A stretch of DNA of 64,000 nucleotides from an uncultured Coriobacteriia bacterium (GCA_963768865.1 CAVYJL010000008.1:139580-203579), one strand, 5' to 3'. Numbered from the stretch's first letter, positions 3,884 to 30,187 are shown. Translations and numbers: made by a program. Notes: generated by a model not told the origin, from the sequence alone.

Positions 3884-4495
3884 CCTGACCTCCTAGGGTC
3901 CGGGTGCCGGCTGTGACGGTGTCGGGCGGGGGCCCGACGGGGTGCGAGGCACCGGTATGATGCACGCCCTCGCGCACAGTGTGCCTCCCCCGGAGGCCCC
4001 CGAACGACATTCAATGAAGAAGTAACCGCGGTGTCTCATGCCGTTAGCAATACGGCGTTCACGTTCGTTCGCACCGATGTCACGAACTTCTTGCGCGCAA
4101 CTTTCGCGCGTGCAACCTTCGCCCGGCCTCGGCACGGCACAGTGTCCATCGTCCACCCACCCGGACAGGGAGTCAGACCGCCACCAAGGCGGCGTGGGCG
4201 GTCATCGACTACGACGGCGACTTCATGGCGAGCCGAGGCGTATAGCCTCCGAGCGCGCCGGGTTCGCGAGCCCTCGCACCCGGGCTCGCAAGCCCCTTCG
4301 CCCGGCAGCGGGTCCTTCGCCTCAGGCGGAGGACCCGCTGCTCCTTTCCCGCCCGAGGTGCCGGCCGGGGGCTCCGGGCAGTCGGGCTCCACGCACTCAG
4401 CCCCGCGTGAGCCCTCGATCCTGATCGCGGGAGGTTGCTCATCGAAGGCCGTACAATGGAAGATGAGGCATCCGGTTTGCCTGAACAGTGCAAAC

Positions 4496-4573
4496 GCCCT
4501 CGTAGCTCAGAGGATAGAGCGGTGGTTTCCTAAACCATGTCTGTCGCAGGTTCGAATCCTGCCGGGGGCACCA
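4496..4573 (+). tRNA. tRNA-Arg (anticodon CCT), CCA encoded
   Basis: Cloverleaf folded by hand: acceptor GCCCTCG/CGGGGGC, D stem GCTC/GAGC, anticodon stem GTGGT/ACCAT with loop TTCCTAA (U33, CCT, A37), T arm GCAGG-TTCGAAT-CCTGC, discriminator A, CCA. The variable region is 7 nt, which is unusually long and may itself contain an indel. Confidence 0.85.
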
Positions 4574-4586
4574 ACTTGATGCGCGC

Positions 4587-4616
4587 GGGGCCGGCCTCGA
4601 GAGGCCGGCCCTTTCT
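4587..4616 (+). terminator. Intrinsic terminator after the tRNA
   Basis: GGGCCGGCC-TCGAGA-GGCCGGCCC hairpin followed by TTTCT. Confidence 0.6.
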
Positions 4617-4624
4617 CGACCAAG

Positions 4625-4666
4625 CCGTCGAAAAGGAAGGGGCCGGTCCTTTCGGACCGGCCCCCC
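4625..4666 (-). terminator. Intrinsic terminator after the cytochrome-CWB2 gene
   Basis: On the minus strand, a GGGGCCGGTCC-GAAA-GGACCGGCCCC hairpin is followed by TTCCTTTTC, ~55 nt after the reconstructed stop at 4720. Confidence 0.6.
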
Positions 4667-4719
4667 TTCGTCTACAGCATCGAGGAGTTCGCGCTGAACT
4701 CCTCTCTAGGTCCTGTGAC

Positions 4720-7700
4720 CTAGAGGTTGAAGATGTCGTAGATCGCCTCGAAGACGTTGCCGTCACAGCGCCCGATCCACCGTTGATGATCACCTCGGTG
4801 ATCGTGCTCTTGTGGTCGGTGAGGAACGTCGCGGCCGAGATGGACAGCGTCATCTTCTCCGTGAGGAGCATCACGCCGCCGTTCTTGCCGATCGCCGCCC
4901 AGGCGCTGAGCCCGTCGGGGAAGTCCTCACCCGTGACGATGCCGACGAAGCCTGCACTAGTGCCAGGCGCGTTGGTAAGAGCCCACGTAGCGAAGTCGGC
5001 CGAGCGGACGTACAGATCGGACGCGCCAACGATGCGCGTTGCCGTGACGCCGGTGAGGCCGTTCAGGCTCGTCACAACGCTGTTGCTCACGTTGCCCGTA
5101 CTACCGACCACGTACACGGTGTCGATGCCGTTACCCGTGATTGCGGCCGACGTGAAGGAGTTCAACGCCGTCGGCTGCGTCAGGATGACCGGCCACTTCT
5201 GCTTGTACGAGACCGGACCCACCGTCAGGGCGTCTTGGAAGGTGGTGCCGTCCACGACGAACGCCTTATCGGCGAACGCCCCGCCCATCATGGTGTGGAC
5301 CTCGTCGGCCACAGCCTGGGATGTACCGTAGCGGTTCGCTCCGGCGAGCCGGTGCGTGTCGCCGCCGGTGATGCCGGTACCTGCCTGGATCGCAGCAACG
5401 ACCGCGTTCGGGATGACCGGTGCCGCCGTCGATCCGGTGCCACCGACTACCCACAGGACGGGAGTGCCGGTCTTGATGCGGTTGATCTCATCAATGACCG
5501 CGTTGATCGAGGCCGGGTTCGTACCGCCCGTCGTGTACGCCGGAACCAGCAGGACCGGGCTGCCCGCGGCACCGGAAAGACCGGCGGCCGAGAGTGCGTC
5601 CGGGAAGTTCTGGCCCGTCGCGATGACGATGTTCTCGATCGTCCCGGTCGCGAACTGCGACTGGGACACCTTGATGGCCGTCTGGTAGCGGTTGATGCCG
5701 GCGATGCGCATCGGGACGATGCCCGCGCCACCGATGGTCACCTGGACCGGCGTGCTCGTGTAGATGAGCGCACCGGGATCGCCACGAACGACCCACGCCG
5801 CACGGAAGAACGTGGTGGCGCTGATCGTGCCACCGCTTCCGAGATAGGCGCCGGTGCCGTCAGCCGTGACCGTGCTCACGTTGGAGTACGGGCCACCGAC
5901 GACGGAGGCCTTCTGGATCACGATCGTCGCGCCCGCCGCGGGCACAGAGGTCGCACCGTTGGAGGCCATGCCGAACATGCTGACGGTGTCGCTCGGCGTG
6001 ACGACCATGGACGACGGAACGCCGGTCACCGAACCGCCGATGGCGTTGGCGTACTTGGTGGCCACAGCGAGACCGGCTGCGAGGTACGGCGGGTTGTGAA
6101 CGCCGTTCGAACCCTCAGCTGCGGAGAACGCCTGGTTCCAAGCGCCGATCTTGTAGGCGATCGATCTCGGGGTCGGTGCTCGTCGTCGTCTGAATGCTGG
6201 ACGACCAACCCTTGCGGGTACGGGCCGCGGTCAGCGCGGCGGAAGCCGCTGAGTTCTCAGACGTGAAGTCCGACTGCCAACCGTCGATCTTCGTCTGCAG
6301 GTTGGTCAGGCTCAGGCTCTGGTGGCATGTCTGCTGGCAGGAGTCCTGGCCGCCATTGGCGATGACGCCCCATGTCTGCGCATTACCCGGCAGCATCGGC
6401 AGGAAGCTGTGGGTAGGCCGACCGGCGCGCGTCTGCACCATATGGCACTGCTGGCACTCGACGCCCTCCATGAACTCCCCGGCGTCGGCGACGTCGACCA
6501 TGCCGGTACCGGCGACGGTCTCACGCGTCGGATGGGAAGCGATGTGGCTGCCGAGCGGGTAGCCCGTAGCGAACGCCGCGGCGCTCGGGGGCTGGGTCTC
6601 CAGCACCTGGAACTGCCAGTTGTGGCAGTCCGCGCAGCCGGCGCCTTCGCGCAGGCCCAGACCGCCGGTAACGGTGTTCTCGGTGGAGCTGTGGGCCGTA
6701 TGGCACACCTGGCACGTGACGCCGGCGATGGGCGTGGACGTGGGATCGGTGCCCGCGAAGTCCGTCTCCACATAGGAGGACTGGCTGACGATGTTCTTGC
6801 CGTTCACCGGGTCCAGGGTGGTCCCGATGTAGTTCATGCGACCGTCACCCGAGTGGCAGCGCATGCACTTGGCATTGCCGCGACCCTTGGCAGCGATCCA
6901 CGGGTTGATGTGGCCACGGCCGCCCGGAACCGGCGTGATGCCGACCGTACGGGTCGTGTCCCAAGGGCCGGTATTGCCGCCGGCCGTCTGGTCGACAGCG
7001 CTGACCCACTCGTTGAAGTAGCCGTGGTTCATGCCCTTGTTGGCACCGTTCGGATAGAACGCGTAGCCGGAGGCCGGCCACACCGCGTTCGTCGTGTCGA
7101 TGGTCTTGATATCGAAGAAGGTCAGAAGAGAGTTCTGACCAGGCACAAGACCGGTGCCCACGTTATTGGTGGTGAACCCGAGCGGGCTCGAGAAGTTCGA
7201 GCTGGCCGAGTCGTACCGCTTGACGTATGCGGTGTCGGAAGCCAGCGCGGAGCCGGTCGCGTGGCACTGGCCACAGACGCCGGCCTGCAAGATGAGCTTC
7301 TTCGTGATCGAGCTGCTGCCCGACGGCGCGCCGGTGCCGGCACCGCCGTTGACATAACCGACGAAGCTGACGCCTTCGCCCGCATGGCTGTTGCTCGTAG
7401 GCGTGTTGCCCACGTTGCCCGTGCCGTGGCAGGTCTCACACTGGATGGAGAGACCGGACTGCCACTCCGTCGGCGTCGCCGATGGGTCGATGGAGCCCGT
7501 GATCGGGAAGATCCTTGGCGCCCTGGCCGGGATAGTTCGGCTTGGTGACGCCCACGTTGTGGCAGGAGCCGCAACGCTGGAAGTACGGGACCAGCGAGAC
7601 CTTGGCCTCCAGCAACCATTCGCCGGTGACCGGGTCATAGCTCGTGCCGTCGATCAGCGGATACTCGTTGCCGAGCCCGTTGGTCGCGGCTGCGGCCATC

Positions 7701-8158
7701 GTGGCCGTACCGGAGTAGTCGGGACCGGAAGCCGTCGGAAGGACGCTACCGGGGACTCCCACCCATTCCTTGGTGAAGCCCTCGCCGCCGACCTCGAACT
7801 GGACGTTGCTCGGGTTGAACCGCAGGCCATTGTCGAGGCCCGGCGCCGGCCACATGTTCGTGGCGCCTGACGTGGGCTCGAGGGCCCCGAGGTTGCCCGG
7901 GATGCTCGTGACCATACTGGAGTGCGCGTTCGGATCGGTGACGAACGGGCCCGGAGTACCTACCGTCCAGCCCGCCGCGTCATCTGAGTGACACCCACCG
8001 CCTGTTGCATTGCAGCTGTTGGCGGTGAAGTCGGTCGTGTCGTTGATGCCGGAGTACGTACGGCCGAACGAGTTGGTCGTCGCCGCGGACGCGATACCGG
8101 CGCTCAACAGCACGAGTGCGCCTACCAGGATGATCGCCAAGAGATGCCTTGGCTTCAT
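4720..8158 (-). CDS. Secreted multihaem c-type cytochrome fused to three CWB2 cell-wall-binding repeats (~1,145 aa); interrupted as sequenced by 3 single-base frameshifts
   Basis: The ORF pieces 7436..8158, 6115..7638 and 4530..6065 join smoothly. The junctions read ..NYPGQGAK|IFPITGSIDP.. at ~7513, ..STDPEI|AYKIGAWNQAFSAAEGSNGVHNPPY.. at 6159-6166, and ..IINGGSGAV|GNVFEAIYDIFNL* at ~4763. The N-terminus is a Sec signal (MKPRHLLAIILVGALVLLSAGIASA). Haem motifs are CGSCH, CETCH, CGQCH, CMRCH, CQVCH, CADCH, CQQCH, CQQTCH (CX3CH) and a possible CNATGGGCH. The three CWB2 repeats start at RIAGINRYQTAIK.., RLAGANRYGTSQAVA.. and RIVGASDLYVRSADFA.., each with a G.dFPDAL/QDAL core. Confidence 0.8.
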
Positions 8159-8756
8159 AGAATTCTCCCCCTCTGTCGCTTACGCTTTCTCGATCCGGCG
8201 CGGCACGTTCCCGGCACCACCACCTCCTCTGACGCCGCGACGGCTCTGTTTCGAAAGTCGGGCGCGACGGGCCTACGGCCCACGCGCGATATGGCCGGAC
8301 GCTCCCCTCGGGAGCGGGATCGCGGCGGCCGTCACAGCCGTCCGACCCGGACCCGCAGCATCCGGCCCTGTTAAGTGCATAGCCCTTTGTCTATGGGCAA
8401 GTTGAGCGTGCGCCAAGCCTACGACGCGACCAGCGGCGTTGTTCGAGATCCCCGTAGACATGGGCCCCCGTCCACGTCCGAAGAATTGCAGGTGCCGCGA
8501 GACGGGCACCCGGACCGCGGCACACGGTCACTCCTGTGGTTTACCCGAACCCGGTGTGAACGTTGCATCACATTCTGTGGAATGTGCCCCCTGCCTGCGG
8601 CGCTTCCAGCCGACGCGCACCGGCCAAGACCGCGCGCCCGAGTGTACGGGCGGGCTCACGCGCGCGAGACGAGCGCAGCGGGGTCGGCGAGAAGCCCGGC
8701 CCTGCGGGGTCTGCGAGCGTCCGAACGCGCTTCCGGGGGACAGGACTCCGGCCGAG

Positions 8757-13368: not shown

Positions 13369-14269
13369 ATGACATCTCCGGTTCCCCTGCTCACTGACGA
13401 CCCGCGCGCCGCGGCGGTGCTGGCCGGCGCGCGGATCCTTTACACCGACCTGGACGGCACCCTTCTAGGCCGAGGCGGTTCGCTCCTCAGCGACCACGAC
13501 GGCACGCCCACGCTCGTCATGGCGGACGCCGTGGTGGACCTGAATCGGGCGCAGCTGCCCGTGGTCATCGTGTCGGGACGCAACTCGCTGCAGCTCGTGG
13601 AGATCACCCGCATGCTGGGCTGGACCGGCTTCATCGGCGAGGTGGGCGCGGTGTTCGTGCGCGACCGCGGCGCCGAGATCACGTACAACCTGGGGCAGTG
13701 GGCCGCGGACGCCGTGCCCGAAGGAACCACGCCCTACCAGGTGATCGCCGATTCCGGCGCCGCCGAGCGCCTCATGGCCGCCTTCCCGGGCCTCATCGAG
13801 TATCACGACCCTTTCCACCTGAACCGGCTGGCATCGCACGTCATGCGCGGGAACGTGGACATCGCGGCCGCGCAGCGGATCGTGGACGAAGACGGCGGCC
13901 ACCCGCCCATCGACATCGTGGACAACGGCATCATCCACCCGTGGCGCCACACCCTTGTGGGTGTGGATCGAGATCCACATCTATCACCTGCTGCCCCGCG
14001 GCGTGAACAAGGCGCAGGCGGTGGCGGCGGACATGGTGGCGCGCGGCATCTCGCGCGACGAGGCCATCGCCGCCGGCGACTCGATCGCGGACCTGCGCAT
14101 GGCCGAGGCCGTGGGGCTGATGACACTCGTCGCCAACGGCCTGGACTCCTCGGTGACGGCGGACGCCGCCGAGCGGCTGGACAACCTCGTCGTCACAGAG
14201 CAGCGCCAGGGCCACGGCTGGGCCGAGCTCGCGCAGGCGTGGCTCAGCGCTCGAGGCGAGCGCGCGTGA
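13369..14269 (+). CDS. HAD-superfamily (Cof/sugar-phosphatase-like) hydrolase; one frameshift near 13965-13975
   Basis: HAD motif I is YTDLDGTLL, motif II is VIVSGR, and the C-terminal GDSIADLRMAE is motif IV. ORF 13369.. and ORF 13955..14269 join at ..HTLVGV|(I)EIHIYHLLPRGVNK.. within GGATCGAGATCC. Confidence 0.75.
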
Positions 14270-16731: not shown

Positions 16732-16884
16732 CCGGCGAGGCGCCTCGCCTCGCCTCGGCAACGAGCTTTACACCGTACAGCGGCGGCGCCGTGGACATGA
16801 CGCCCGGAGCTTCAGGGTTGCCCCGCCGGGTATACCGAGCCTACAATGGCCGGTGCGCCGTTGGCGCGATTTGACAACACGAAG

Positions 16885-17070
16885 ATCTCATCCGTTAGGC
16901 GCGGCTCCTGTCGCGAACACAGGCCACTGCCCGGAAATGTCGAGAGACGCCAATGGGTAGAACAGCCCTCGCCGGCTTAAGGCGAAGGCTAAGGTGGCTG
17001 GCCCCGGACCTCCCTGAGGCGGGACTACCTACGTCCGACAGTGCCAAAACCGATGACGAGGGACGAGATC
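16885..17070 (+). promoter_or_regulatory. M-box (ykoK-type) Mg2+ riboswitch aptamer
   Basis: Block-by-block match to the B. subtilis mgtE leader as I remember it: GTTAGGCGCGGCTCCTGT, CTGCCCGGAAATGTCGAGAGACGCCAATGGGTAGAACAG, TTAAGGCGA, GCTGG and ACAGTGCCAAAACCGATGACGA. P1 is formed by CTCATCC / GGGACGAG. Confidence 0.9.
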
Positions 17071-17423: not shown

Positions 17424-19304
17424 ATGCTCTACCTCACCCGCATGGTGGGCAAGCCGGTGGTGGACGCCGCCGGAACGGAGATAGGGACCATACGCGACGT
17501 CGCCATCGCGACCGGGGAAGTCTTCCCTCGCGTGACTTCGCTCGCCTTCACCGGGCCCGACAAGACGCCCTTCATGCTGTCTTGGCGCAAGTACGTGGAG
17601 TCTGTGGACCCCGACAGGATCGCGCTCAACGCCGCCCGCCAGGACCTTCGCTTCAGCTACCAGCAGCCCGACGAGGTCCTGCTCGCGCGTGACCTGCTCA
17701 ACAAGCAGATCGTGGACACGCAGGGCATGAAGGTCGTGCGCGTGAACGACCTCAAACTCGCGGAGTCCCGCAACCAGCTTCGCCTCCTGGGCGCGGATGT
17801 GGGAGTCACCGGGCTTCTGCGCGCGCTGTCCCCCGCGCTCGAGCGCGCGGCCGTGAGCCTGTCCAAGGCAGTGGGACGCCCGCTCAAGGAAGACCTCATC
17901 GCCTGGAACTACATGGACCTCCTCGACCGCGACCTGTCGCAGGTGCGTCTGTCCGTCACCCACAAGCGCCTGCACGAGCTGCACCCCGCCGACATGGCCG
18001 ACATCCTCGAGCAGCTCACGCCTGCTCAGCGCGCGGCCGTCTTCAGCCAGCTGGACATCAACCAGGCGGCCGAGACCATGTCCGAACTCGAAGACGAGTA
18101 CCAGGCCGAGGTCGTGGACGACCTGGACAACGAGCGCGCCTCGGACATCTTGGAGCTCATGGACCCCGACGACGCGGCGGACGTCGTGGGCGACCTGCCC
18201 TACACCAAGGCGGAGCAGCTGCTCAGGCTCATGGGCGTCAAGGAGCAGGCTCAGATCAGGGCGTTGCTCGGCTATCGGGACAAGACCGCCGGCGGCATCA
18301 TGACCTCCGAGGTCACCACGGTCACGCCGGAGATGAGCGTGGCGCAGATCATCGAGTACCTGCGCGGCGAGGCGTCGGAGTTCGAGAACATCTACTACGT
18401 CTACGTGGTGGACGAGTCTCGCCACCTGCTCGGCGTCGTCTCGCTGCGCGACCTCGTGGTCGCCCAGCCCAACACATGCATCGAGTCCGTCTACAAGCGC
18501 GACGTGATCACCGTGGACCCCGACGACGACCAGGAAGAGGTCGCCGACACGATGTCCAAGTACGACCTGCTCGCGCTCCCGGTCGTGGACGAGAGCGGCG
18601 TGATCTTGGGCATGGTCACGGTCGACGACGCATTGGACGTCATGGAAGAGGAGTCTGCCGAGGACCTCGCACTCGCGACGGGATCCACGGAGACGTTCGA
18701 TCCCACGGGCGGGATCTGGAAGTGGGTGGGCCGCCACGGATGGCTCTGGGTCTGGATCCCGCTCGGGGTCTTCGCCGCACTCCTGGCGCGCTATCAGTCG
18801 TTCGTGCGCAGCACCGGAGCGTTCGGTGCGGCACCGGGCTTCCTCATCGTGGCGACGCTGAGTCTGCCGCTGCTCGTGCTCGCGCCGGTACTCCTGCGTT
18901 TCTCCGAAGACATCGCCGCACGCACCGTGGCGCGGCTCATCGAGGAGTCCGACGAGGAAGAGGTGCCGGCCTGGTGGTTCACCCTGGGCTCCGACGCGCT
19001 GGGTGGACTCGTACTGGGCGTGATCCTGGCAGCCATCGTGTTCGTTCTCGTGGAGCTCACCAACTATGGGACCGCGCTCCAGTCGATGGGAGGCGCAGGC
19101 GTGATCGCCGCGGTCAGCGGCCTGACGGTGCTGCTCGTCGCGGTTGCCGGCACCGCCGTGGGCGGATGGGCCCGCTGGATGACCGGACGCGACCGTCGCG
19201 TCTCGGCCAGCATGGTCTACATCGTCCTCATGGCTGTGGCCGCCGTCCTCTACGCCGCTCTCGCGATGGTCGCGGTCGTCGCGGCATACCCCTACCCGCG
19301 CTAG
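17424..19304 (+). CDS. PRC-barrel + MgtE-N + CBS-pair protein with a divergent C-terminal membrane domain
   Basis: N-terminal PRC barrel (LTRMVGKPVVDAAGTEIGTIRDV; NKQIVDTQGMKVVRVNDL). The MgtE_N helices follow (HPADMADILEQLTPAQRAAVFSQL..DDAADVVGDLP), then two CBS motifs (IMTSEVTTVTPEMSV..; VITVDPDDDQEEV..LPVVDESGVILGMVTVDDALDV). About 5 TM helices at the C-terminus do not look like the canonical MgtE pore. RBS is ACGGAGGA. Confidence 0.75.
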   Translation: MLYLTRMVGKPVVDAAGTEIGTIRDVAIATGEVFPRVTSLAFTGPDKTPFMLSWRKYVESVDPDRIALNAARQDLRFSYQQPDEVLLARDLLNKQIVDTQGMKVVRVNDLKLAESRNQLRLLGADVGVTGLLRALSPALERAAVSLSKAVGRPLKEDLIAWNYMDLLDRDLSQVRLSVTHKRLHELHPADMADILEQLTPAQRAAVFSQLDINQAAETMSELEDEYQAEVVDDLDNERASDILELMDPDDAADVVGDLPYTKAEQLLRLMGVKEQAQIRALLGYRDKTAGGIMTSEVTTVTPEMSVAQIIEYLRGEASEFENIYYVYVVDESRHLLGVVSLRDLVVAQPNTCIESVYKRDVITVDPDDDQEEVADTMSKYDLLALPVVDESGVILGMVTVDDALDVMEEESAEDLALATGSTETFDPTGGIWKWVGRHGWLWVWIPLGVFAALLARYQSFVRSTGAFGAAPGFLIVATLSLPLLVLAPVLLRFSEDIAARTVARLIEESDEEEVPAWWFTLGSDALGGLVLGVILAAIVFVLVELTNYGTALQSMGGAGVIAAVSGLTVLLVAVAGTAVGGWARWMTGRDRRVSASMVYIVLMAVAAVLYAALAMVAVVAAYPYPR

Positions 19305-19314
19305 GAAGCCGGCC

Positions 19315-20580
19315 GTGACCCCCGCGTCCAAGATCAGGAAGACCCTGTCCACACGCAGGACCGCCTTCATGGCGGGCCTCGCCGTGCTCGGCCCAGGCAT
19401 CATCGCGGCCTCGGCAGGTAACGACGCCGGCGGAATCTCCACGTATTCCGCCGCGGGCGCGCGCTTTGGCTACCAGATGCTGTGGATGATCTTCGTGATG
19501 ACGTTCTCGCTGGTCATCGTGCAGGAGATGGCGGCGCGCATGGGCGCCGTCACGGGCAAGGGCTTTGCCGCGCTGATCCGCGAGCAGTTCGGCGTGAAGC
19601 TGGCGTTGTTCGCGATGTTCTGCCTGCTCGCGAGCAACGCCGCGACGAGCGTGGCCGAGTTCGCAGGCGTGGGCGCTTCGTTGGAGCTGTTCGGCATATC
19701 CAAGTACATCTCGGTGCCAGTGATAGCGATCGTGGTTTGGGTGCTCGTCACCCGCGGCAACTTCAGCGCCGTGGAGAAGGTGCTCCTGGCGTTGTCGGCC
19801 GTGTTCTTGAGCTACATCATCGCAGGGTTCATGGCCAAGCCGGACTGGGGCACCGTCATCAAGGCCACGTTCATCCCGCAGTTCACGTGGTCGGGGCCGT
19901 TCGTGTCGCTGGTGATCGCGACGATAGGCACGACCATCGCGCCTTGGATGCAGTTCTTCGTCCAGAGCAACATGGTGGACAAGGGCGCGACGGTGGAAGA
20001 GCTCAGGCTGCAGCGGGTGGACGTCGTGGGCGGCGCCATCTCGGCCAACGTCGTCGCGTGGTTCATCATCATGACCACAGGAACGGTGCTCTACCCGGAG
20101 GGCATCAAGGCCACGACGGCCACCCAGGCGGCGCAGGCGCTGGCGCCGCTGGCGGGGCAGTTCGCGACGGTGCTGTTCGCCGTGGGGCTCTTCGGCGCGT
20201 CGATGCTGGCTGCCGCGGTGCTGCCTCTGACCGCCGCCTACGCGATCTGCGAGGCGTTCGGGTGGGAGGCCGGCGTGAACAGGTCGTGGTCCGAAGCCCC
20301 CGCGTTCAACATCATCTTCACCTTCGTCATCTTCTTCGGCGCCGCGGTGATCCTGATCCCCAACGTGAACCTCGTCGGGATCATGATCTTCTCGCAGGTC
20401 ATCAACGGCGTTCTCCTGCCGTTCCTGCTCATCTTCATGATGCTGCTCATCAACGACCGCCGCCTCATGGGCGAGCACGTGAACGGACGCGTCTACAATG
20501 CGATCTCGTGGGCCACGATCGTGGTCGTGCTGGGCCTGTCCGTCGTGCTCATCGTCATGACCGTCCTGGGTATGGCCTAG
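19315..20580 (+). CDS. NRAMP/SLC11-family transporter of the NRMT (NRAMP-related Mg2+ transporter) type
   Basis: NRAMP fold (GPGIIAASAGNDAGGISTYS..MLWMI..QEMAARMG). TM1 reads DAGG instead of DPGN, and TM6 reads TTIAPW instead of A..MPH. These are the N->G, A->T and M->A substitutions I recall as diagnostic of NRMTs. Confidence 0.75.
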   Translation: MTPASKIRKTLSTRRTAFMAGLAVLGPGIIAASAGNDAGGISTYSAAGARFGYQMLWMIFVMTFSLVIVQEMAARMGAVTGKGFAALIREQFGVKLALFAMFCLLASNAATSVAEFAGVGASLELFGISKYISVPVIAIVVWVLVTRGNFSAVEKVLLALSAVFLSYIIAGFMAKPDWGTVIKATFIPQFTWSGPFVSLVIATIGTTIAPWMQFFVQSNMVDKGATVEELRLQRVDVVGGAISANVVAWFIIMTTGTVLYPEGIKATTATQAAQALAPLAGQFATVLFAVGLFGASMLAAAVLPLTAAYAICEAFGWEAGVNRSWSEAPAFNIIFTFVIFFGAAVILIPNVNLVGIMIFSQVINGVLLPFLLIFMMLLINDRRLMGEHVNGRVYNAISWATIVVVLGLSVVLIVMTVLGMA

Positions 20581-28873: not shown

Positions 28874-30187
28874 CTACTTGCGCGGGTCGTTCACGACGCC
28901 CGCGAAGAGCACGCAGCCGCTGTCGTCGTCCACGATCGCGAAGACGAACGGCTGGTCCGCGGTGACCTTGATCGGTGCCGAGGGGACCTGCACCGCGCCG
29001 GCCATCATCTCCACGGAGGTTGCTGCCGCCGCCTCCGTCCCCTTCTCGTTCACGTCGATCGCGGTCGCGTGCTCGACGTCGCCTATCCAGATCTGGGGCG
29101 TGGGCCCGACCCGCATCGCCGAGAAATCCGCCCGCTTGCGGTCGAACGCCACCGGCATGCCCATCGCCGACAGGGCCTCGTTCAGGCTGCTGGAGTAGGA
29201 GGTCTTGAAGCGCGGAAGGGTGAGGTCGGCCCCGCGTGCCCGCAGAAGCGTCGACTGGTTCCGCGTGGCGGTCTGAGTCTCCAGCCAAGCCGGGACCACA
29301 GCCGCCACCTGGGCCGGCGTGCTGTCGGCCTTGGGCACGAAAACGTACATGGACGTCCGGTACGGGCGGGTGCTCGACCCTAGGTCCTTGTACGGGATCC
29401 GGGCCGCGGCGAACCGCTGGGTCTCGTAGCCGGAGAGCCCCTCGAGCCCGTGCATCATAGGGACCTCGGCGGTCGACCCGTCCGCGAGGTGGAACGGCTG
29501 GTCATGGGTGGAGCTCGGCTCGAAGGGGGTCTCCCAGTCGTTCTTGAAGTACACCGCGTTGAGCAGGAACAGGACGGCTCCCGTGTCGACCCTGCTTACG
29601 AGGTGCTGGATCTTACCCGCGGTCTGCGAAGCCACCCACGAGTTCATCAGGTCGGCGGCGCCGGGCGCTGCCAGGTCCAGACTCTGGATCTGCGCGCCGA
29701 AGCAGTCCCGGTCCGTGGCCAGGAACGGCTTGGACCACTGCACGCCGGGGTCGGCGAAAAGCGCGTTGGCGACTCGCACCGTTGCCGCCTTGGTCCCGGT
29801 AGGTATCTGTGAGAGGAACCGAGCGTACGCACGGTCGGCGCTCTCCAGGTGCGACGGCTCCTCGCCCAGCACCGCCGCCATCTGTCGCCGGGTCTCGCCG
29901 GCGGCGCCGTTGGCGGTCATGGTCAGGGCCGTGTGCACCGAGAGGGGCGAGACCACCACGTTGTCCCCGCCGCGCCGCGAAAGCTCGCCGAGCAGTCTGA
30001 ACCCGAACGAGTCGATGGCTCGACTGAGGTCTTCCGAGGACGAGGGCGGGGCGCTCGCGCGCGCTTCGGCAGGCGCCGCGGCAGGCACAATGACCGCGCT
30101 CGGAGGCAGGGGGCGGGGCACGACGGAGCACCCGTAGACGCTCGAAGTGAGAAGTGCGGCGAACAGCGCGACAAGTACTCGGGTCAT
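28874..30187 (-). CDS. Serpin (serine protease inhibitor) lipoprotein
   Basis: ATG 30187 follows AAGGGAGAG. Lipobox is SSVYGC. Serpin hallmarks are NAVYFKNDWETPF, the hinge EKGTEAAAATSVEMMAG and the C-terminal FVADQPF-like VTADQPFVFAIVD. Confidence 0.85.
   Translation of the reverse strand: MTRVLVALFAALLTSSVYGCSVVPRPLPPSAVIVPAAAPAEARASAPPSSSEDLSRAIDSFGFRLLGELSRRGGDNVVVSPLSVHTALTMTANGAAGETRRQMAAVLGEEPSHLESADRAYARFLSQIPTGTKAATVRVANALFADPGVQWSKPFLATDRDCFGAQIQSLDLAAPGAADLMNSWVASQTAGKIQHLVSRVDTGAVLFLLNAVYFKNDWETPFEPSSTHDQPFHLADGSTAEVPMMHGLEGLSGYETQRFAAARIPYKDLGSSTRPYRTSMYVFVPKADSTPAQVAAVVPAWLETQTATRNQSTLLRARGADLTLPRFKTSYSSSLNEALSAMGMPVAFDRKRADFSAMRVGPTPQIWIGDVEHATAIDVNEKGTEAAAATSVEMMAGAVQVPSAPIKVTADQPFVFAIVDDDSGCVLFAGVVNDPRK

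Follow-up and report, generated by a model that had tools for sequence, protein, structure and literature searches.

The described protein that best matches the one considered here is OcwA (TherJR_2595) from Thermincola potens JR, a terminal reductase that carries nine haems, sits on the cell surface, and has a structure available (PDB 6I5B; Costa et al. 2019, PMC6703420). OcwA is located at the surface and reduces iron oxides and electrodes; it also reduces nitrite and hydroxylamine slowly, with a kcat for nitrite of about 1 per min, and it is unrelated to MtrC (PMC6703420). Two of its haems, 2 and 5, are high-spin haems with open pockets, each lying beneath a His-His pair (PMC6703420). The conserved non-bonding histidines of OcwA are H282 and H381, and OmhA belongs to the same structural clade (PMC9250108). 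In Coriobacteriia, OcwA homologues have been noted earlier for Anaerosoma tenue, without any anchor (PMC9686372). Here, we analyse a gene on the minus strand of a 64,000-nucleotide stretch of DNA, referred to below as the window, from an uncultured Coriobacteriia bacterium (GCA_963768865.1, CAVYJL010000008.1:139580-203579). Judged from its sequence and from those of its relatives, it encodes an OcwA-like cytochrome fused to three CWB2 repeats.

CWB2 trimers bind a secondary cell-wall polymer non-covalently in Clostridioides difficile. To our knowledge, OcwA and OmhA have both been found at the cell surface, and no anchoring module has been described for either.

Architecture of the Protein

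The gene occupies window positions 4720..8158 (minus strand) and becomes a single open reading frame (ORF) of 1145 codons, read from 8158 to 4720, after three one-base edits; the stop codon TAG at 4722-4720 is included in this interval. The corrected protein of 1145 amino acids (aa) is colinear with the intact homologues P0001, P0003, and P0004. Without correction, the same strand holds three ORFs in three different frames, at 7436-8158 (240 aa), 6115-7638 (507 aa), and 4530-6065 (511 aa). An earlier reading of the locus, made from the sequence only, had taken three minus-strand fragments for one protein of about 1145 aa split by three indels, and both the open frame produced by the edits and the colinear intact homologues bear this out.

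The fusion itself does not depend on any correction, since the last cytochrome helix (GSNGVHNPPY), the immunoglobulin (Ig)-like domain, and all the CWB2 repeats lie in one unbroken frame (4530-6230) of the uncorrected sequence. Nor is it peculiar to this record: intact homologues of 1001-1139 aa carry the same two parts within one ORF, as had been proposed for the window. We therefore regard the fusion of a cytochrome with CWB2, as it can be read in these sequences, as real.

The protein begins with a putative Sec-type signal peptide, residues 1-26 (MKPRHLLAIILVGALVLLSAGIASA-AT; 8081..8158, minus strand), which is conserved in homologues and is the sole hydrophobic segment of the protein. It has a putative ASA-AT cleavage site and no lipobox Cys. 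The assignment agrees with the sequence-only reading and likewise comes from reading the sequence.

Residues 27-709 (6030..8080, minus strand) form an OcwA-like nonahaem cytochrome c domain, recognised by a profile match to PDB chain 6i5b_A and by weak matches to multihaem Pfam families, the latter found in the second of the three pieces. Nine haem sites are present, and they repeat exactly the series of seven CXXCH motifs, one CX3CH, and one possible CX6CH that had been noted before correction. Site 1, at residue 49 (7988..8014), has the non-canonical CX6CH form (CNATGGGCH), where homologues have CXXCH or CXCH. Seven CXXCH motifs follow on the same strand: site 2, CGSCH, at residue 196 (7559..7573); site 3, CETCH, at residue 240 (7426..7440); site 4, CGQCH, at residue 295 (7261..7275); site 5, CMRCH, at residue 431 (6853..6867); site 6, CQVCH, at residue 482 (6700..6714); site 7, CADCH, at residue 508 (6622..6636); and site 8, CQQCH, at residue 568 (6442..6456). 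Sites 2 and 5 are the counterparts of the high-spin haems 2 and 5 of OcwA. Site 9, at residue 607 (6322..6339), is a non-canonical CX3CH (CQQTCH), where every homologue examined has CXXCH. None of the 18 cysteines in the protein lies outside a haem motif. The cluster is hardly a matter of chance, because all seven CXXCH motifs in a six-frame translation of the whole 64-kb window belong to this gene.

The homologues have 8-9 CXXCH motifs with an occasional CXCH or CX3CH, and the sites of odd spacing are putative haem-binding sites. Among intact members of the family, P0004, P0013, and P0014 have CXCH at site 1, and P0016 has CX3CH at site 2, so the CX6CH and CX3CH of the window need not mean decay. 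Compensating frameshifts at site 1 were considered and rejected; the other frames yield no CXXCH there, and the 12-nt difference is therefore real. The first haem site is unusually variable within the family. CXCH is not a standard attachment motif for haem c.

The cytochrome domain ends in a three-helix bundle, residues 617-705 (6042..6309, minus strand), which is supported by the AlphaFold model (helices 617-649, 663-680, and 689-705, with a predicted local distance difference test score, pLDDT, of about 64-90) and by alignment with the OcwA C-terminus. The bundle includes GSNGVHNPPY, and the 'AWNQAFSAAEGSNGVHNPPY' motif, which had been singled out as a C-terminal helix motif of multihaem cytochromes, indeed aligns with the last helix of OcwA.

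The bundle is followed by a predicted Ig-like beta-sandwich, residues 715-812 (5721..6014, minus strand), which specifies what had been described only as a beta-rich spacer. AlphaFold places strands at 724-808 (pLDDT 75-90), Foldseek finds a resemblance to Ig and nanobody folds (TMt ~0.6), and relatives carry Big_3_5 and CarboxypepD_reg matches at this position.

The rest of the protein consists of CWB2 repeat 1 (RIAGINRYQTA...NFPDALSAAGL; 5367..5711), repeat 2 (RLAGANRYGTSQA...; 5049..5357), and repeat 3 (RIVGASDLYVRSA...; 4723..5045), all on the minus strand and all supported by Pfam, AlphaFold, and Foldseek. Pfam CW_binding_2 (PF04122) matches in three stretches with 136.4 bits (cut-off 24.9; E 4.9e-40), and the family profile also matches the C. 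difficile CWB2 structures Cwp8, Cwp6, and SlpA at E 1e-33 to 1e-24. In the AlphaFold model, three alpha/beta units cover residues 816-1143 with a pLDDT of 75-96. When the predicted C-terminal half is submitted to Foldseek, it superposes on the high-molecular-weight (HMW) subunit of SlpA (7acy_B; E 2e-18, TMt 0.71, root-mean-square deviation 3.7 A) and also matches Cwp6 and Cwp8; chain 5j72_A is matched at E 2e-20. The three repeats expected by the sequence-only reading are thus present, and the model identifies the C-terminal region as a pseudo-trimeric CWB2 wall-binding module. Like SlpA HMW, Cwp6, and Cwp8, the protein has three tandem repeats with the motif ..G.NRY.T... and ..FPDALSA... In contrast to the C. 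difficile proteins, the module is C-terminal, its partner is a multihaem cytochrome and not an S-layer, amidase, or protease domain, and its host belongs to Actinomycetota.

The structure prediction that the sequence-only reading had called for was successful in part: the C-terminal half is confident, while the haem domain has a pLDDT below 50 over residues 13-612. The poor performance of AlphaFold2 on the haem domain was to be expected for modelling without cofactors and from 11 sequences.

Relationship to OcwA and Other Multihaem Cytochromes

When the family profile was compared with all PDB sequences, the best match was OcwA (6i5b_A, E 1.6e-39). Profile positions 36-648 align with chain residues 16-483, and the nine haem motifs are in register. 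The choice of OcwA as a precedent is thus well founded, as the cytochrome part is homologous to it. The two proteins share nine haem sites in equal order (sites 1 and 9 putative here), the C-terminal three-helix bundle with a GSxGVHN motif, the distal histidines over haems 2 and 5, secretion, and a monoderm host. In family alignments, the counterparts of OcwA H282 and H381, the second His of the OcwA NSHH and VHHP sequences, are H378 (invariant) and H542 (nearly invariant).

The differences are also considerable. OcwA is 526 aa long and stops after the helix bundle, and a wall anchor is not named in PMC6703420; the protein described here continues for about 435 aa more, which comprise the Ig-like spacer and the three CWB2 repeats. 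It has N and S in place of H281 and H380, it has CX6CH and CX3CH at sites 1 and 9, where OcwA has CXXCH, and its host is a high-GC member of Actinomycetota, not of Clostridia.

OmhA of Carboxydothermus ferrireducens (PDB 6QVM) is likewise a surface cytochrome of a Gram-positive iron reducer and was recovered from the S-layer. Unlike the protein studied here, it has eleven haems and an N-terminal two-haem extension, and no CWB2 has been reported for it; OmhA is not among the matches of the family profile against PDB sequences. The "SLH-linked cytochromes of Carboxydothermus" invoked earlier as a second precedent are not borne out by Gavrilov 2021 (PMC7829351), in which the term SLH does not occur.

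Two better-known groups were examined as possible homes for the family and rejected. Octahaem relatives of the c554/MccA type and NrfA show a distant similarity in the C-terminal five-haem module and helix bundle (E 4e-7 to 1e-5). However, only this module is weakly similar, the match with OcwA is far stronger, and membership of NrfA is contradicted by the lack of CXXCK in the protein and by nine sites instead of a pentahaem core. With the decahaem MtrC/OmcA/MtrF proteins of Shewanella, the protein shares a presumed job, namely terminal electron transfer at the cell surface, but it belongs to a different fold family. Those proteins are defined by ten haems in a staggered cross, two beta-barrel domains, and a lipoprotein signal, whereas the present one has nine sites, no lipobox, and no porin partner, and it again matches OcwA more strongly. 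The Pfam match to PF22113 is marginal (31.9 bits against a cut-off of 30) and covers only stretches rich in haem motifs.

Distribution of the Fusion

An exhaustive HMMER scan over 1.84 billion cluster representatives yielded at least eight fused clusters at 50% identity. Eight clusters, P0003, P0004, P0012, P0013, P0014, P0016, P0018, and P0022 (1029-1139 aa), align end to end in one stretch and hence have the cytochrome-Ig-CWB2 architecture. PF04122 together with cytochrome Pfam families is found in the intact proteins P0001, P0003-P0010, P0012-14, P0016, P0018, and P0022. The fusion architecture is already in public data, where it is unannotated. About 20 further clusters correspond to the cytochrome and Ig part only.

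Among species-representative genomes, the relatives come from metagenome-assembled genomes (MAGs) labelled Coriobacteriia, Actinomycetota, Thermoleophilia, and similar. The relatives at L003-L006 align through the CWB2 part, and more distant ones have Big_3_5 or CarboxypepD_reg and no CWB2. P0002 shares 63% identity and is syntenic with the window, and in place of CWB2 it carries a further beta domain. Because CWB2 is replaced or missing in such relatives, the anchor is an exchangeable C-terminal module on a conserved core of cytochrome and Ig domain.

Members of a clade at about 35% identity (L001-L005) have, directly after this gene, one of about 1086 aa whose product contains 19 CXXCH and two longer-spaced motifs and a single N-terminal transmembrane helix. 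This polyhaem gene lies at L001:13131-16391 (plus strand), with equivalents in L002-L005, and is a candidate membrane-to-wall electron wire. In L025, the cytochrome gene stands beside haem-copper oxidase and DsbD_2 genes.

The full-text literature search found no description of a CWB2-anchored multihaem cytochrome, in line with the earlier remark that none was known. A surfaceome study of the Gram-positive metal reducer D. reducens sought PF04122 and found none.

Possible Function

On balance, and with moderate confidence, we favour reading the locus as one gene for a wall-tethered, OcwA-like nonahaem electron-transfer protein of the cell surface, a terminal reductase, with the breaks as assembly errors. 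The surface electron-transfer role is suggested by homology to OcwA in combination with the anchor. The protein would be exported by Sec, and its haems would be attached by maturation proteins of the System II type, encoded at another place in the genome. The CWB2 module would bind a secondary cell-wall polymer non-covalently, and the Ig spacer would keep the haem domain on the outer face of the wall or beyond it. In that position, the chain of nine haems might receive electrons from upstream cytochromes of the wall or membrane and deliver them to acceptors outside the cell, for example Fe(III) minerals, humics, flavins, or electrodes. As in OcwA, small soluble substrates may also take up electrons at haems 2 and 5, whose pockets are open. 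The membrane-anchored 19-haem protein of the sister clade probably feeds the nonahaem protein there.

Several observations weigh against this interpretation. The motifs of haems 1 and 9 are non-canonical, and none of the relatives examined shares CX3CH at site 9. In each His pair of OcwA, the first residue (H281 and H380) is replaced here, by N377 and S541, which makes the protein a divergent relative rather than a typical OcwA. AlphaFold was unable to model the haem domain, as described above. The clade of the window lacks the adjoining 19-haem partner, and the 64-kb window contains no cytochrome c maturation genes, other cytochromes, or quinol dehydrogenase. Three frameshifts in 3.4 kb are mildly above expectation, and real decay is possible. 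Finally, haem attachment, binding to the wall, and exposure at the surface are each deduced.

The same protein might be a wall-anchored enzyme whose main activity is towards small soluble compounds at the two open-pocket haems, for example in nitrite or hydroxylamine reduction, detoxification, or reduction of sulfur compounds, and not a terminal reductase for minerals or electrodes. We consider this improbable. In its favour, the protein belongs to the NrfA/c554/MccA/OcwA superfamily: NrfA structures match the C-terminal module (E 4e-7 to 1e-5), homologues give PF02335 matches, haems 2 and 5 keep their distal histidines, P0004 adjoins haem-copper oxidase genes rather than genes of extracellular electron transfer, and OcwA itself reduces nitrite and hydroxylamine (PMC6703420). 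However, the catalytic CXXCK motif is missing, and the turnover of nitrite by OcwA is very slow (kcat ~1 per min; PMC6703420). An enzyme of this kind would draw no obvious benefit from being tethered at the outer wall through a spacer, and the coupling with a membrane-anchored 19-haem protein in the sister clade is typical of long-range electron export. The two roles are, moreover, not mutually exclusive.

The favoured role as a surface terminal reductase can be extended, tentatively, to a two-part electron conduit across the wall, or a redox-active S-layer-like array, in uncultured Coriobacteriia-like Actinomycetota; we hold this rather less probable than not. A protein of 19-21 haems on a single transmembrane helix would then carry electrons through the wall, and the nonahaem protein, tethered through its CWB2 trimer to a secondary wall polymer and possibly arranged as an S-layer-like array, would discharge them outside.

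Origin of the Three Breaks

Frameshift 1 (7504..7507, minus strand), located by homologue alignment, is a surplus base in or beside a CCC run that splits ..GAKDLP from ITGSIDPS.. and was corrected by removing one C from the run at 7505-7507. Frameshift 2 (6156..6162, minus strand), located by homologue alignment, is a surplus base in gat[c]gcc that falls in ..STDPEID-AYKIGAWN.., within the conserved helix-bundle region and not at a domain border; C 6159 was removed. Frameshift 3 (4760..4761, minus strand), also located by homologue alignment, is a missing G (GGG read as GG) in ..GGSGAVT-GNVFEAIY.., and one G was put back at 4760/4761. Repair of the third break recovers ..GGSGAVTGNVFEAIYDIFNL*, a C-terminal end typical of the family, and the three edits make residue 667 the family-conserved Ala. 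In an alignment with ten intact homologues, all three breaks fall inside conserved sequence. Codon bias is of the coding type in all three pieces, with a G+C content at third codon positions (GC3) of 0.80-0.83. The G+C content of the window is about 70%. The gene region (4001-8000) is lower, 65.5-66.2% against about 70% around it, and its GC3 compares with 0.86-0.94 in neighbouring genes.

A codon-usage Viterbi tracker permitting frame changes was run on the whole 64-kb window, and it finds the three sites of this gene as well as about 20 further candidates for one-base frameshifts. These include sites at ~10686, ~13960-14010, ~21583, ~35623, ~52441/52604, and ~59171. Among the broken genes are ordinary ones, encoding an ABC substrate-binding protein, a HAD hydrolase, a deacetylase, a MacB/FtsX permease, and a CNNM transporter. 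Correction lengthens the match to Polysacc_deac_1 from 6-80 to 6-122 of 124 positions, that to CNNM from 82-171 to 2-171 of 181, and that to NMT1 from 1-144 to 1-205 of 216, and it joins MacB_PCD and FtsX as one protein. The HAD and NMT1 genes, frame-split in the window, are whole in the syntenic relative L023. Since frameshifts of the same type affect window genes that are intact in a relative, the assembly is evidently prone to indels, and the three breaks are, with good probability, best read as its errors. The suggestion that the indels were errors thus gains support from the neighbouring genes.

The principal alternative is a true pseudogene, that is, an ancestral CWB2-anchored nonahaem cytochrome inactivated by three real frameshifts, with haem sites 1 and 9 degenerated. 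Frameshift density is indeed higher in the cytochrome gene (0.87 per kb, 3 in 3.4 kb) than elsewhere in the window (~0.3 per kb), but the enrichment is weak, as the Poisson probability of at least three with about one expected is about 0.09. CX6CH and CX3CH depart from the CXXCH of the closest homologues, yet intact relatives have non-canonical haem spacings too, all other family-invariant residues are retained, and each Cys still lies within a haem motif. The deposited proteins P0081, P0011, and P0021 show the same three fragments, and neither a partner cytochrome nor a maturation gene is nearby; on the other side, coding-type codon bias runs through all three pieces (GC3 0.80-0.83), and like one-base breaks in ordinary genes across the window, whole in the syntenic relative, point to the assembly and not to the gene. 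Taken together, these observations leave inactivation an unlikely explanation, with roughly one chance in several on its side.

That there are three separate genes as deposited, namely genes for two cytochromes, the first of them small, and for a stand-alone CWB2 wall protein, is extremely improbable even though the public collection lists proteins of 240, 432, and 511 aa, because the breaks lie inside conserved segments and not at domain borders (break 2 is inside the helix bundle), pieces 2 and 3 have neither a signal peptide nor a plausible start (one begins at an internal GTG), piece 3 continues through the terminator into the antisense of a tRNA-Arg gene, and relatives have the whole protein colinear in a single ORF.

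Two mechanisms that might have accounted for the breaks were rejected. Programmed frameshifting does not fit the mixed signs (+1, +1, -1), the lack of slippery motifs, or the like defects in unrelated genes. Basecalling errors linked to GATC were considered since all three indels are near GATC, yet this tetranucleotide occurs at 6.2 per kb in the window, and proximity to a sequence so frequent is uninformative. By our own estimate, its 396 occurrences in the window are ~2.2x the ~176 expected from base composition.

The public protein collection files the gene as P0081, P0011, and P0021 (240, 432, and 511 aa), which are identical to window ORFs and stem from a 429-kb NCBI/ENA contig. As a result of frameshift 3, the uncorrected third ORF, and with it the deposited protein of 511 aa, overruns the true stop and the terminator hairpins and enters a tRNA-Arg(CCT) gene in antisense. 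The 511-aa protein thereby carries a spurious tail of 62 residues (..PAGFEPATDMV; 4530-4600, minus strand), antisense to tRNA-Arg(CCT) at 4496-4573 (plus strand).

Flanking Regions and Genomic Context

Upstream of the gene there is a non-coding region of 598 nt (8159..8756, minus strand), in agreement with the ~600 nt given earlier, in which the frame tracker finds no coding signal. Its proximal ~100 nt (8159-8260), which contain the GGGGGAGA ribosome-binding site, are also conserved in the syntenic relative L023/L024 and may form a regulatory leader. Otherwise the two intergenic regions are of unequal length, 598 nt in the window versus ~300 nt in L023/L024. No Rfam family was matched by the 598-nt leader, and a strict promoter scan gave one weak promoter-like site only, on the wrong strand.

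At the 3' end, the stop codon is followed by a structured region (4630..4719, minus strand) of three consecutive hairpins with a folding energy of -67.5 kcal/mol and a z of -7.7. The last hairpin (~4639-4666) is GC-rich and is followed by UUCCUUUUC, which makes it terminator-like. The claim that the gene has its own terminator is thus favoured by strong hairpins and by UUCCUUUUC, but a strict consensus scan for terminators made no call on them. Downstream of the hairpins lies the convergent tRNA-Arg(CCT) gene.

L023/L024, from a wood metagenome, has the gene order of the window: methyltransferase, HAD, GalT, GNAT, NMT1 binding protein, ABC ATPase, permease, and cytochrome. The place of the gene after the ABC transporter operon is kept in a relative at 63% identity, despite the lower G+C content.

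Elsewhere in the window, a full-length M-box magnesium riboswitch (RF00380, 124.6 bits) occupies 16884-17070 (plus strand), upstream of genes for a PRC-barrel/MgtE_N/CBS protein (~17424-19304) and an Nramp transporter (~19315-20580). A full-length serpin domain is encoded at 28874-30185 (minus strand; PF00079, 2-370/370, E 1e-91). Serpins are uncommon in bacteria.

Significance

The combination of cytochrome and CWB2 is a predictable domain fusion, and the gene is formally broken in this record. Annotation based on ORFs will fragment genes in a record so prone to indels. Because the assembly has this property, the public protein collection lists the gene as three apparently unrelated fragments, and surveys of multihaem cytochromes would miss or miscount it.

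How redox proteins are held outside the thick Gram-positive wall is an open point in extracellular electron transfer. The family described here offers a concrete answer, in which a well-understood and structurally characterised wall-binding module is attached to a terminal cytochrome by way of an Ig-like spacer, and it adds MAGs of high-GC Actinomycetota, obtained from environmental metagenomes, to the places where OcwA-type cytochromes occur. If the two-part conduit were true, it would give a Gram-positive surface cytochrome its first defined mode of anchoring, and cytochrome-based mineral respiration would reach into a poorly known actinobacterial lineage.

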